Shown: one piece after another, positions 54,928 to 60,227 of the stretch
How the letters are laid out: the number at the start of each line of letters is the position of its first letter
How positions within the stretch are numbered: position 1 is the stretch's first letter
Source of the DNA: Escherichia coli
GTDB taxonomy: Bacteria > Pseudomonadota > Gammaproteobacteria > Enterobacterales > Enterobacteriaceae
Length of the DNA: 64,000 nucleotides
Assembly (NCBI RefSeq): GCF_050920415.1
Contig: NZ_CP169309.1
Strand: one strand, 5' to 3'
Notes under the pieces: generated by a model
What the model was told of the DNA's origin: nothing
The model's database searches: none
The model's input: only the letters and a program-made list of their open reading frames with translations
Program-made: the position numbers and the translations under genes

Positions 54928-56172
54928 TTAGTTACGCAGGGCGCTATTTGCCAGACGATCGTCTTCCGCCTGGCAAGCTGCTGCAGTGAACAGCACGTCA
55001 GTTGAAGAGTTCAGCGCGGTTTCGCAAGAGTCCTGCAATACGCCGATGATAAAGCCGACGGCAACCACCTGCATGGCGATATCGTTCGAAATACCGAACA
55101 TATTACAGGCCAGCGGGATCAGCAGCAGAGAACCACCTGCCACGCCGGACGCACCACAGGCGCACAGAGAAGCCACTACGCTCAACAGCAGCGCCGTTGG
55201 TAGATCCACCGGAATACCCAGCGTATTAACCGCAGCCAGCGTCAACACGGTAATGGTGATTGCTGCGCCCGCCATATTGATCGTTGCACCTAGCGGAATA
55301 GAAACGGAATAGGTATCACGATCCAGATTCAGCTTTTCACACAGCGCCATATTCACCGGAATGTTCGCCGCAGAGCTGCGGGTGAAGAAGGCGTACACGC
55401 CGCTTTCGCGCAGGCACAGCAGCACCAGCGGGAACGGGTTACGACGAATTTTCCACCACACCAGCAATGGGTTAACCACCAGCGCCACCAGTAACATACA
55501 GCCAACCAGCACCACCAGCAGTTGCGCGTAGCCCCACAGTGTGGAGAAACCGGTGGTAGCCAGGGTAGAAGAAACCAACCCAAAAATACCGATCGGTGCG
55601 AAGCGAATGACCAGTTTCACCATAAAGGTGACGGCATTCGACATATCGTTGACCAGGTTTTTGGTGGTCTCGTTACCGTGACGCAGTGCGAAACCGAGGC
55701 CAATTGCCCACACCAGAATCCCGATGTAGTTACCTTTCAGCAGCGCGTCGATGGGGTTGGAAACCATGCTCATTACCAGCCCGCGCATCACTTCGACAAT
55801 GCCTGACGGCGGCGAAATATCACCCGCGCTACTGGACAAGTGCAGGGTAGAAGGGAAGGCAAAGCTGAAGACTACTGCGGCCAGAGCAGCAGAGAAGGTG
55901 CCCAGTAGATAGAGGAACAAAATAGGACGGATATTGGTTTTCTGCCCGTGCTGGTGGTTAGCAATAGACGCCATTACCAGCATCAACACCAGGATGGGGG
56001 CAACGGCTTTCAGTGCGCCGACGAACAAAGTACCTAACAGACCAACAGCTTCCGCCGCGGGTTTTGAGATCCATGCCAGAAGAATCCCCAGAACAAGGCC
56101 GACCAGGATTTGTTTTACCAGGCTGCCATGAGCCAGACGCCGGAATAGCCCCGGTGAACGTTGCGTAGTCAT
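54928..56172 (-). CDS. sstT: Na+-coupled serine/threonine transporter SstT
   Basis: 414-aa multi-pass ORF, DAACS family. Confidence 0.9.
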
Positions 56173-56641
56173 TTTTCGATCCTTTCATTGTGTTGTCGCA
56201 CATCCCTGGTGCGTTCTGTCGACGCATCTTTCAGGATGTAACAAAGTGTTTGCAAGGTCGAGTATAAGGAAAGTTACAGCTTCGGGAAGCGAAAAATGCT
56301 GGATTTTAAAGAGAGGTCATATTTTGCAACTTAATGGTTACATTTATTTGACATAAACAGAGGGAAGGACTGGCTGCTGAGACTGATTAGATAACATATA
56401 GGCAAAACTATTTGGCATATGAGAACTGTTGCGCTCCTGTGATGTACGATGCCACATAAAGTCACTGGCGCAGGGAGCGGCCAATCGCCGCTGCCCCGGC
56501 CTGCAGGGAACGCTTCGGTGATTTTGACGCCACTAACACCCAAGCGATCTTTTTGTAAAGAGCTATAAGTCGGTTACATACTTAATCGCTCATCTTTGTC
56601 TGGAAGGAGTTATCACCCGTAGTGGCTTAATATACAGCGAA

Positions 56642-57607
56642 TTATCCCACCCGCTGCTTATCATGCCGATAATTCACCCAGGCGTTGATAATAAACGTCA
56701 TCACCAGAATACCAAACACCACGCCCAGCGAAACGGCGATCGGAATATGGTAGAAATCGACAATCAGCATCTTGATACCGATAAACACCAGAATTACCGC
56801 CAGACCATATTTGAGCATCGAGAAACGTTCTGCTACGCCCGCCAACAGGAAATACATCGCACGCAGGCCGAGGATCGCAAACAGGTTTGAGGTCAGCACA
56901 ATAAACGGATCGGTGGTCACGGCGAAGATAGCCGGAATGCTATCCACGGCGAAAATCACGTCGCTCAACTCCACCAGAATCAGTACCAGCATCAGCGGCG
57001 TGGCATACAACAAACCATTCTTACGCACAAAGAAATGCTCGTTGTCGATGGTGTCGGTCATGCGCAAATGACCGCGCAGCCAGCGCACCAGCGGCTTGTC
57101 ACCAATACCTGATTCATCTTCATGAGCCAGCGCCATCTTCACGCCAGTAAACAGCAGGAAGGCACCGAAGATATACAGGATCCAGTCGAACTGCGAAATC
57201 AGCCAGCTGCCAGTGAAGATCATGATGGTACGCAGAACAATCGCCCCGAGTACGCCATACACGAGCACGCGGCGTTGTAATGCCGCCGGAACAGAGAAAT
57301 AGCTGAACAACATCAGCCAGACGAAGACGTTATCGACCGCCAGTGATTTCTCAATCAGATAACCGGTGAGAAACGCCAGTGCCTGCGGGTCCGCGACTTC
57401 GCGCCCCTGCGTCTGGACTAAATACCACCAGAAAGCGGCGTTAAACAGTAACGATAGCGTCACCCAGACCAGCGACCAGGCTGCAGCCTGTTTCATGGTC
57501 ATGGCATGCGCGCCACGACGCCCCTGCAACAACAGGTCGATAGCCAGCATAATGGCGACAACGACAGCGAATCCGCCCCATAGCAACGGCGTGCCGACAG
57601 TATTCAT
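56642..57607 (-). CDS. alx: TerC-family inner membrane protein Alx (YgjT)
   Basis: 321-aa multi-pass ORF. Confidence 0.9.
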
Positions 57608-57800
57608 AGAAGTTCCTTACACATAAAAAAACGGCCAACGTCGGAAGACGTCAGCCGCTGCTTTTTATGCATAGACCTCGCCTTCCGGCAAGGTCTCACT
57701 TACAACAAAAAAGGAATACGTCTGCGTATTCCTTTCGGGTTGCCCGGTGACCGGATGTGGTTTTTCACACATCGTAATGACGATCGACCGGCAATGAAGT
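57608..57800 (-). promoter_or_regulatory. alx 5' leader (pH-responsive riboregulatory element region)
   Basis: Long structured leader with a stem-loop plus T7 immediately before the alx RBS and a second stem-loop GGAATACG-TCTG-CGTATTCC upstream; boundaries approximate. Confidence 0.5.
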
Positions 57801-57889
57801 TACTCCCCTTTGCAGGTAACAAAGTATGACAGACCATTCGGTCAGTCAATGGTCTGTTACATCCCTTTTACACTGTTTTACTTTGGCTA

Positions 57890-58876
57890 TTATAGTTTTA
57901 CGCTATCTGCCGGAAAAATCACCCCGGTCTGGCGGCGGATCTCGGTCAGCAGCCTGGCGGTGATACGACTGACCGCCAGCCCTGGATGATCTACCAGATG
58001 TTCATCCACCAGGGTAGCGAACAGCTCTGCTTCGTACAGCATGGTATTAATATGCTGCGGTTGGGTAAGATCCTGCATCTGGCTGCCGCGCGGCACAAAG
58101 CAAACTTTCTGGCATTCAGACAGTTTTTCAATCACCAGCGATCCCGCTTCGCCCTGAATCTCACTTGCCAGCACAGAATCACTGACCTTTGAGTGCTGCA
58201 AGGTAACGCTGAAATCACCGTAATCCATCACCACCACGCCGTGGGCATCCACACCACTTGCCAGCAAACTGGCGGTTGCCTGCACGCTTTTCGGTTCACC
58301 AAATAACGCCACCGCCGACGCCAGACAGTAAAAGCCGATATCCATAATTGAACCGTTGGAGAATGCCGGATTGAAGGTGTTGGGATTCTCGCCGTCCAGA
58401 TAACGTTGATATCGCGAGGAATATTGGCAATAGTTGAAAAAGACTTTACGCAATTTGCCAACTTTCGGCAGTACCTGGCGTAACAAATGGAAATTCGGCA
58501 GGCTGGCGGTTTTAAATGCCTCAAACAGCACCACCTGATTTTCCCGCGCACAGGCAATGGCGGCATCCACTTCCGCCAGATTCGACGCCAGCGGTTTCTC
58601 GCAAATCACATGAATTTTATGGCTAAGGAAAAGTTGTGTCTGGGAAAAATGCAGGGCATTCGGGCTGGCAATATACACCGCGTCAATGGCATCGCTTTCT
58701 GCCATCGCTTCCAGCGATGTAAACAGATGCTCGACAGAAAAATCATTGGCGAAGTGCTGGGCCTGTTCAAGGCTGCGGGAATAGACAGCGGTTAACTTGT
58801 ATTTACCGCTCTCATGGGCGGCCTCGACGAACTGGCGGGTGATCCAGTTCGTGCCAATCACAGCGAAACGTATCAT
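57890..58876 (-). CDS. ygjR: Gfo/Idh/MocA-family NAD(P)-dependent oxidoreductase YgjR
   Basis: ORF 57890..58894 trimmed to MIRFAVIGTNWITRQF (Rossmann motif). Confidence 0.85.
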   Translation of the reverse strand: MIRFAVIGTNWITRQFVEAAHESGKYKLTAVYSRSLEQAQHFANDFSVEHLFTSLEAMAESDAIDAVYIASPNALHFSQTQLFLSHKIHVICEKPLASNLAEVDAAIACARENQVVLFEAFKTASLPNFHLLRQVLPKVGKLRKVFFNYCQYSSRYQRYLDGENPNTFNPAFSNGSIMDIGFYCLASAVALFGEPKSVQATASLLASGVDAHGVVVMDYGDFSVTLQHSKVSDSVLASEIQGEAGSLVIEKLSECQKVCFVPRGSQMQDLTQPQHINTMLYEAELFATLVDEHLVDHPGLAVSRITARLLTEIRRQTGVIFPADSVKL

Positions 58877-58954
58877 AACGCGTGGATACTCCATAAAGGG
58901 ATTCTGCCGTCAATGTAGCACGCCTTTTTCATCTTCGACGTGCGCAGATACGCA

Positions 58955-59647
58955 TTATTCTTTCGCCGGACAGCCATGCTCGCTAAACGGCCCAATCATG
59001 ACCGACGGCCCGAGATATTTCGGCTGTCGATGGAGGATTTTCGCGTCAATCACTGCGCTGACGCGAGCGAGTTTCTCCCGCAGCTGAGTATAAAAACCAT
59101 GTTTCATATTCAGGTCTGGTGCGTTAAACCCGATGGCATCGATGCCGTACTGTTTTGCCAGCCAGATGGCGCGTTGGTTATGAAATTCTTGCGAAATAAT
59201 AGTGATATGGCTTTCACCAAACACCTTTTTGGCACGCACCACCGAATCAAGCGTTGAGAATCCGGCGTAGTCGCAGAAGATGACTTTTGCGGGTACGCCT
59301 TTAGCGATCAAAGCCTGCTGCATGCCTGAGGCTTCATCGTAATTTTTACGTCCGTTATCGCCGCTCACTAGTAGCCATTTCACTTTTCCGGCGTGGTACA
59401 ACTCTGCTGCGGTATCAATACGTCGGGTAAAGTAGCGATTACCCGGCCTCGCCCCCAGCAATAAACCCACGTTACGCGCCGGAACGGCGTTGACATCGCT
59501 CCAGGTCAGCTGCTTGCTGGCGTTGACCATAACGCGATCGGCAATAAAAATGGTCGCTCCTGCTATAAGCAACAATAAACAGCCAAGCTTTAGAGTCCGG
59601 CGAGAAAAACAAATACGGAGAAGAAGGCGGGCAAAGGCGCGCAGCAT
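58955..59647 (-). CDS. ygjQ: DUF218 (YdcF-like) domain protein YgjQ
   Basis: 230-aa ORF with N-terminal transmembrane anchor. Confidence 0.85.
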
Positions 59648-59723
59648 GGTCGTTATCCTTAACGAAAGGGGGGAGGTCGATTTTAGGCGCTAAAGGAAGA
59701 AAAGATAACGCCTGATATCATTT

Positions 59724-60227
59724 TCAGATTTTGTCCTGCCCAAGCGACAACTGCGTTAGCCACAGACGAGTGTCGAATTCAAGCTGGTGGTACTGCGGCT
59801 CCATATGACAGCACAATTGATAGAATGCTTTGTTGTGCTCTTTCTCCTTCAGGTGCGCCAACTCGTGCACCACGATCATGCGCAAAAACGGTTCCGGCGC
59901 GTTGCGAAACACGGTAGCGACGCGGATCTCTGCTTTTGCTTTCAGCTTGCCGCCCTGCACACGCGAAACAGCGGTATGTAACCCGAGCGCGTTTTTCAGC
60001 ACATGGATCTTGTTGTCATACATCACTTTATTGATCGGCGGGGCATTGCGCAGAAACTGATTCTTCAGATCCTGAGTATATTGCCAGAGGGCTTTATCGG
60101 TGGCGTAGTCGTGCGTTCCTGGATAGCGTTTTGCCAGCACATCGCCCAGACGCTGTTCATTAATCAGCGTGCGCACCTGGGAAAGCAACTGTTCGGGATA
60201 ACCCTGAAGATAAGTAAGATTGCTCAT
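59724..60227 (-). CDS. ygjP: Putative zinc metallohydrolase YgjP (WLM/DUF45 family, HExxH)
   Basis: ORF 59724..60263 trimmed to [15 protein letters not shown]; HELAH motif. Confidence 0.85.

Follow-up and report, generated by a model that had tools for sequence, protein, structure and literature searches.

Identification of the leader upstream of alx in an Escherichia coli genome as the alx-type, three-way-junction yybP-ykoY manganese riboswitch

The stretch of Escherichia coli DNA analyzed here (64,000 nucleotides, hereafter the window) carries between ygjR and alx a promoter and a 207-nt cis-acting alx leader, which we assign with a probability of about 95% to the yybP-ykoY class of Mn2+ riboswitches as a representative of the alx type, with a three-way-junction aptamer and an ON/OFF expression platform. 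The element is already known and has been thoroughly characterized, with a crystal structure and cotranscriptional probing data. The leader has reportedly been described as SraF from 2001, as the pH-responsive element (PRE) from 2009 and as a Mn2+ riboswitch from 2015.

The gap between the two genes measures exactly 282 bp (57608..57889), as the preliminary description of this DNA had given it, by both the list of open reading frames and RefSeq; the ygjR reading frame ends at 57890 (-), and RefSeq lists the same genes for a genome of E. coli identical to this one. The alx product matches the Pfam TerC family at 181.8 bits and is named "TerC family membrane protein Alx" or "Mn(2+) exporter Alx" in RefSeq. 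A 701-bp query covering the ygjR-alx locus is present in 5419 of 5426 complete E. coli genomes. The features that define the transcription unit are as follows:

56642..57607 (-): alx coding sequence, 321 aa, a TerC-family membrane protein; the regulated gene
57605..57618 (-): Shine-Dalgarno sequence AAGGAA (nt 197-202; 57618..57613), spacer ACUUCU and alx ATG (57607..57605), from the sequence and the list of open reading frames
57608..57814 (-): alx 5' leader (PRE / SraF), RNA nt 1-207, with +1 at 57814, from the K-12 match and published landmarks
57821..57826 (-): putative alx promoter -10 hexamer TACTTT, 7 nt upstream of +1, read from the sequence
57844..57849 (-): putative alx promoter -35 hexamer TTGACT, read from the sequence and fitting the published +1

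With +1 placed at 57814 (U in ccUGCAAAGGGG), the leader is 207 nt long, and numbering from this base fits all published landmarks that we checked, namely the extent of nt 1-207, termination at ~108/110 and ~190 nt, the residues A11, A37 and A137, and the pause sites C36, C58 and C73/A74 (PMC9472077, PMC12153347). Of the three residues, A11 lies in L1, A37 in L3, and A137 is paired in the inactive form of the leader (PMC9472077, PMC12153347). From +1 to the ATG, 206 of 207 positions are identical to K-12 MG1655, and the leader is therefore the published element, which was first detected as the small RNA SraF upstream of alx and was characterized in K-12 as the PRE (PMC9472077); the earlier identification of the region as the pH-responsive leader of alx is thus borne out. 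The two leaders share locus, promoter, terminators at ~108 and ~190 nt, A11, A37, A137, the L3 sequence UCAUUAC and a three-way junction whose capping loop stands in for P2. The sole difference within the leader lies in the apical loop of P3.2, where the window has C55 and K-12 has A55, and four more differences all fall upstream of +1. Most E. coli genomes carry C55 (over nt 25-84, 3607 of 5419 are identical to the window), and it also occurs in E. albertii, another Escherichia species and Citrobacter. We infer that the C55 allele of the window behaves like the K-12 leader.

The promoter assignment is consistent with comparison among genera: TTGAC with a 17-nt spacer, the spacing also present in the window, is kept in Siccibacter, Phytobacter, Atlantibacter and E. 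albertii, and the -10 form TA(C/T)TTT is kept in other genera. A simple promoter scan did not flag the alx -10 hexamer because only three of its six positions match the consensus. Just past the ygjR stop, a perfect 10-bp inverted repeat (57829-57838 / 57848-57857) lies within a larger hairpin (57813..57875 (-); RNA fold -22.9 kcal/mol, z -3.6) and overlaps the -35 hexamer and spacer of the alx promoter. K-12 has the same arms but 2 different bases in the loop; the repeat could serve as a 3' hairpin for the ygjR transcript or be bound by a protein at the alx promoter. On the opposite strand, 57867..57896 (+) matches the sigma-70 consensus at 10 of 12 positions (TTTACA, 18 nt, TATAGT), a consensus match that would read antisense into the 3' end of ygjR.

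The first 129 nt of the leader, folded alone, form a three-way junction (z -3.9) with the following parts:

57686..57814 (-): Mn2+ aptamer with the alx-type three-way-junction yybP-ykoY fold, nt 1-129, from a custom covariance model (R1)
57801..57813 (-): 5' strand of P1.1 (nt 2-8) and L1 GGGGAGUA (nt 7-14; L1 57808..57801; A11 = 57804), from conservation
57792..57800 (-): 5' strand of P1.2 (nt 15-18) and L2 capping loop (nt 19-23), from conservation of A15-U18 and the crystal structure
57744..57791 (-): P3 arm with P3.1 (nt 24-34 with 62-71) and P3.2 (nt 42-47 with 56-61), from covariation
57780..57774 (-): L3 UCAUUAC, nt 35-41, with the Mn-contacting A37 at 57778, from conservation and the published consensus
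57702..57743 (-): P4 arm, whose upper part (57736..57709) and U6 (57712..57707) make up intrinsic terminator B, from a consensus scan
57688..57701 (-): 3' strands of P1.2 (nt 114-117), L1 (118-121) and the switch helix P1.1 (122-127), AAGUGAGACCUUGC, from conservation and folds

L1 is the hallmark motif of the yybP-ykoY class, is identical in the mntP leader and contains the cross-helix adenosine, and the sequence CGUCAUUACG at 57782..57773 carries L3 and places the Mn-coordinating adenosine between P3.1 and P3.2. The published consensus for alx-like L3 is likewise UCAUUAC (PMC12153347). Neither folding nor comparison with mntP yielded a P2 hairpin in the alx aptamer, or with it a four-way junction; the link between P1.2 and P3 is five nt long (57796..57792) where P2 would stand, and the crystal structure PDB 9JGM contains the pairs U18-A114 and C19-G23 (PMC12934788). 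The literature describes the alx aptamer as a three-way junction with a capping loop for P2, an L3 of UCAUUAC and a terminator inside P4 (PMC12153347; 9JGM in PMC12934788), and all of these unusual features are readable in the window sequence.

Several features bear on class membership. The gene downstream belongs to one of the metal transporter families found behind such aptamers (TerC, MntP and P-type ATPase families), Alx being a TerC protein. The match to model R1, the UCAUUAC form of L3 and the capping loop in place of P2 mark the alx-type subgroup, and the alx-type platform is recognizable by P5, by P6 with its U-tract beside the ribosome-binding site (RBS) and by the alternative helix 128-136:165-173. 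With the canonical four-way-junction members (RF00080; E. coli mntP, L. lactis yoaB, X. oryzae) the alx leader has in common L1 GGGGAGUA, an L3 of the form GUCA..UAC, the GAGACC 3' strand, the P1.1 switch helix and the site upstream of a Mn2+ exporter gene; the K-12 mntP leader, for example, also has these L1, L3 and GAGACC motifs, in a fold with P2 as a further hairpin. In contrast to these, the alx aptamer is three-way and without P2, has UCAUUAC rather than ACAUACU in L3, holds a terminator within P4 and is strongly pH-dependent.

The preliminary description had proposed a covariance-model search and had named the lack of a match as grounds for abandoning the assignment. With Rfam 15 at the gathering threshold, RF00080 did not match in 55000..60000, nor did it at E<=10 on 57400..58100 or on the 141-nt slice 57690..57830, where only chance matches to terminator-like small RNAs appeared; at E<=0.1 it did not match in the alx loci of 17 other genera either. 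RF00080 does recognize the aptamer of E. coli mntP, used as a control, though at 41.6 bits, short of the 45-bit gathering threshold that the alx leader does not reach either. A custom model, R1, built from 62 distinct non-Escherichia aptamers aligned with the three-way-junction structure supplied, returned 113.3 bits (E=1.2e-33) at 57686..57814 (-) as the only significant match in the 64-kb window (next-best site, E = 2), but does not detect mntP. The two E. coli Mn riboswitches, alx and mntP, are mutually invisible to covariance models. We read the RF00080 miss as a systematic false negative for the alx type, explained by the absent P2 helix; the lack of an Rfam match, though formally the outcome named as grounds for abandonment, is judged accordingly, and the custom model gives the positive result. 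RefSeq/PGAP, which depends on RF00080 here, likewise leaves the alx riboswitch of E. coli genomes unmarked, K-12 included, and automated scans will go on listing it as a structured leader without annotation; alx-type seeds in Rfam, or a subfamily, would close this annotation gap.

Downstream of the aptamer lies the expression platform, the elements of which belong to two alternative conformers:

57673..57696 (-): P5 hairpin, OFF conformer, nt 119-142, from an inverted repeat and the minimum-energy fold
57679..57687 (-): 5' strand of the ON-state helix ("C/D", nt 128-136), from an inverted repeat, pairing with 57650..57642
57642..57650 (-): 3' strand of the ON-state helix (nt 165-173), overlapping the top and loop of P6
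57625..57658 (-): P6 hairpin (nt 157-184) and U7 (nt 184-190), together intrinsic terminator D, OFF conformer, from a consensus scan

Two stem-loops had previously been noted on the minus strand, one of them with a T7 tract immediately ahead of the alx RBS, and both are recovered by the terminator consensus scan. The terminator D hairpin (57659..57630; 13 pairs, loop of 4) leads into U7 (57631..57625), which is followed by six bases (AUGUGU) and then by the Shine-Dalgarno AAGGAA, and the terminator B hairpin (57736..57709; 12 pairs, loop of 4) leads into U6. These two stem-loops are real, but their number was an undercount, as the transcript contains at least four hairpins (P3, 57791..57744; P4, 57743..57702; P5, 57696..57673; P6, 57658..57631) in addition to the inverted repeat upstream of +1. 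The scan returned three terminator-like sites in 57400..58100 versus 0.7 in shuffles, and B and D each combine a G+C-rich hairpin with a U-run. Published termination in vitro is ~43-46% at site B and ~10-13% at site D (~190 nt) at both pH values (PMC9472077).

The leader (231 nt) folds at -96.3 kcal/mol, compared to -63.3 +/- 4.6 kcal/mol for dinucleotide shuffles (z = -7.2; 0 of 200 as good), and folding without constraints gives the published OFF conformer as the minimum-energy structure. In this fold P5 sequesters the 3' strand of P1.1, P6 is formed, the A-rich linker is paired to the U-tract, and the Shine-Dalgarno region is enclosed by pairing of A197-G199 with C16-U18 and of A202-C206 with G9-U13; the L1-strand/RBS duplex in the window reaches -10.7 kcal/mol (z -2.8 versus shuffles). 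Forcing P1 and the 128-136:165-173 helix instead yields the published ON conformer with A137 bulged. Nt 122-127 thus pair either with nt 2-8 (ON) or inside P5 (OFF), as a switch helix does, and the 9-bp ON-state helix and P6 are topologically incompatible. Alternative folding as the means of control, suggested beforehand, is the published mechanism, and both of its conformers are reproduced from the window sequence. The ON fold is ~20 kcal/mol less stable than the OFF fold in the window and ~24 kcal/mol less stable on average across species. With only P1 forced, P6 still formed and RBS accessibility rose from 0.46 to 0.52; with P1 and the ON helix both forced, it rose from 0.46 to 0.51 across species (p = 0.036), each by equilibrium folding. 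The switch is thus not reproduced by nearest-neighbor equilibrium folding, which would fit kinetic cotranscriptional control and the need reported for metal-stabilized tertiary contacts.

Two further pairings in the platform were considered and set aside. An extension of the ON helix past A137 (G138-C141 with G159-U162) is predicted for E. coli, but in the alignment, judged by eye, nt 139-141 vary opposite invariant partners. A hairpin in the linker between P5 and P6 (UGC-N7-GCA, 57659..57671 (-), nt 144-156) is energetically marginal (mean z -0.55) and is not claimed here. The arms of this linker hairpin change together in some genera (UUGC/GCAA, CUUA/UAAG, GGG/CCC), and its bases pair with the U-tract in the OFF fold.

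We fetched 80 Alx loci from across Enterobacterales, of which 78 have the aptamer motifs directly upstream of alx, the exceptions being an Atlantibacter locus with a deletion and a Rouxiella locus, and aligned 73 leaders for conservation and covariation. Invariant in all 73 are G2, C3 and A5-U18 (A4 is conserved in >90%), the L3 core C33-A37 and A40-G42, and G112-G129, which comprise the 3' strands of P1.2, L1 and P1.1; the alignment of 73 yields no covariation evidence for P1 itself because both of its strands are invariant. The arms of the aptamer do covary, with P3.1 98.6% paired and double changes at 6 of 10 pairs, P3.2 92% paired with double changes at 5 of 6, and the P4 base helix 99% paired with double changes at 3 of 4 (73 leaders each), while upper P4 differs by lineage. 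Taken as a whole, the ON structure (P1.1, P1.2, P3, P4 base and the 9-bp helix) is 98.2% paired in the 73 leaders with double changes at 17 pairs, a result that 0 of 500 shuffles equaled and that compares to 29-44% pairing in slid controls. The ON-state helix alone reaches 99.4% pairing across 73 sequences, and three of its pairs show compensatory changes: G130-C171 is replaced by A-U in 11 sequences, A132-U169 by U-A in 2 and G136-C165 by A-U in 1. Most of its residues are P5 and P6 hairpin loops in the OFF fold and yet covary, and selection on the alternative helix predicts just such changes. On the OFF side, the P6 core reaches 99.8% pairing, each of the 73 leaders has it together with a U-tract, and the upper 6 pairs of P5 are kept as an RNAalifold consensus, the lower stem being poorly conserved. 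The two folds, which have the strand GAGACCUUGCC in common and exclude each other, are therefore both under selection, and the alignment provides independent covariation support for an ON-state helix so far backed mainly by probing of E. coli RNA.

The physiology of the K-12 leader has been established in earlier work. Translation of alx rises ~21-fold with Mn2+ and ~68-fold at alkaline pH, transcription rises ~5-fold at alkaline pH, deletion of the leader abolishes regulation, and the leader also controls transcription via two intrinsic terminators (PMC10197570). Mn2+ docks two legs of the aptamer via L1 and L3, according to the literature; A37U, a change in the Mn-coordinating base, abolishes the pH response, which needs Mn2+ binding, and alkaline pH sensitizes Mn2+ binding through tuning by the L2 capping loop and L3 (PMC12153347, PMC12934788). 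Selective Mn2+ binding that changes expression is thus published for a leader one loop base away from that of the window (PMC10197570, PMC12153347, PMC12934788). The earlier label of a pH riboregulator holds with regard to the pH response and the leader responsible, but is dated in that the element is now understood as a Mn2+ riboswitch with pH-tuned Mn2+ sensitivity, acting on termination as well as translation.

Drawing on this work and on the folds described above, the best-supported account is that nt 1-129 can fold cotranscriptionally into two legs, P1.1/L1/P1.2 on the one side and P3/L3 with P4 on the other, which dock around Mg2+ and Mn2+ through the invariant L1 GGGGAGUA and L3 (UCAUUAC, A37). 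Without Mn2+, the P1 switch helix would open, its 3' strand GAGACCUUGCC would enter P5, P6 with U7 would form, and the freed L1/P1.2 5' strand would pair with the Shine-Dalgarno region, with some termination at ~nt 190 and little translation as the outcome. With Mn2+ bound, more readily so at alkaline cytoplasmic pH, P1 would stay closed and P5 would be blocked, and nt 128-136 would then pair with 165-173, breaking the terminator and freeing the RBS such that the Mn2+ exporter Alx is made.

The original model for the PRE, to which the earlier label of a pH riboregulator essentially corresponds, dispensed with metal sensing and held that alkaline pH prolongs RNA-polymerase pausing at two sites, giving the active fold time to form. 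Published pause and terminator landmarks do lie in the leader (PMC9472077), the thermodynamically disfavored ON fold calls for kinetic control, and regulation in vivo reportedly depends on the native polymerase (PMC12153347). Pause dwell times, however, are shorter or unchanged at alkaline pH, and the prolonged-pausing model was not upheld (PMC9472077); a shift to alkaline pH is not by itself enough for the leader to refold, and the A37U mutant loses its pH response (PMC12153347, PMC12934788). Furthermore, the metal-binding core of L1 and L3 is invariant in 73 leaders, which pure pausing would not require. A ligand-free pH device has thus already been largely refuted, and we consider it very improbable for the leader in the window.

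Still less credible is a pair of unregulated intrinsic terminators in tandem that stop ygjR transcription or shield alx from read-through and do not switch, as might be thought from two hairpin and U-tract sites that terminate ~45% (B) and ~10% (D) of transcripts in vitro at both pH values (PMC9472077), and from Rouxiella, which keeps only a P6-like hairpin after the upstream gene. Such terminators would have to account for hairpins that lie downstream of a conserved promoter and a mapped +1 (PMC9472077), for the invariance of parts outside either terminator (L1, L3 and the P1 3' strand), for covariation in the helix that competes with P6, for the many genera without terminator B that still keep the aptamer, and for the loss of regulation upon leader deletion (PMC10197570). 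A role for SraF in trans, as a ~190-nt transcript ending at terminator D that regulates other mRNAs, is comparably remote, even if the element originally came to light as a separate small RNA encoded upstream of alx (PMC9472077). An RNA of ~190 nt would indeed be released at terminator D, but the aptamer motifs stay directly upstream of alx in 78 of 80 Alx loci and the conserved alternative pairings are all internal. No target is known for such a trans-acting RNA, and at most a side role of the terminated fragment is conceivable, though nothing speaks for it. Regulation in cis, by contrast, has been demonstrated (PMC10197570). Attenuation by a leader peptide was rejected, as the short minus-strand reading frames at 57665..57772 and 57604..57699 have no Shine-Dalgarno sequence and are not conserved, the ATG of the former falling in P3.2 at positions that vary between genera.

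Given an alx-type Mn2+ riboswitch, its outputs may not be equally widespread. Like the terminator/antiterminator platforms of transcriptional riboswitches, the alx leader sets a hairpin with U7 (P6) against an upstream helix according to the state of P1. It differs from them in its larger effect on translation than on transcription, 68-fold versus 5-fold (PMC10197570), in a terminator D that stops ~10-13% of polymerases in vitro (PMC9472077), and in a refolding that also frees the RBS. Across genera, complementarity between L1 and the RBS is heterogeneous (mean z -1.1), with z < -2 in only 20 of 73 species. Because P6 and its competing helix are universal and covary, whereas L1/RBS complementarity is clear in 20 of 73 only, one could suppose that the conserved output of the alx type is the choice between terminator and antiterminator (P6 versus 128-136:165-173), and that sequestration of the RBS by the L1 strand is lineage-specific, clear in Escherichia, Pantoea, Yersinia and few others; we put this forward tentatively, as a reading that we consider doubtful.

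Variation among lineages also extends to the P4 arm. Terminator B (57709..57736) occurs in Escherichia, Citrobacter, Kluyvera and some Enterobacter, while Kosakonia, Cedecea and others have in its place a short hairpin that lacks a U-tract; since terminator B is limited to some genera, the first of the two stem-loops noted at the outset is lineage-specific. One E. albertii locus (L005, 1190..1400) bears a ~190-bp insertion in the P4 arm, flanked by a duplicated P4 hairpin, with the riboswitch otherwise intact; the insertion contains REP-like palindromes. Insertions of ~120 bp were found in the P4 arm of two loci (L014, L038), in the P6 region of another (L041) and in the gap between terminator and RBS in a Phytobacter locus (L029), and resemble the enterobacterial ERIC/IRU repeat, whose core reads ...AAGTGACTGGGGTGA.... 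The Phytobacter insertion parts the terminator from the RBS and should uncouple the RBS from the L1 strand.

The aptamer has been lost naturally in the two exceptional loci. In Atlantibacter sp. RC6 (L030, 1391..1503), a deletion that apparently runs between two CCTTGCCG direct repeats has removed nt ~20-125, such that L1 is fused to P5. In Rouxiella aceris (L077, 1440..1503), the P6-like terminator hairpin is all that is left, standing directly after the upstream gene.
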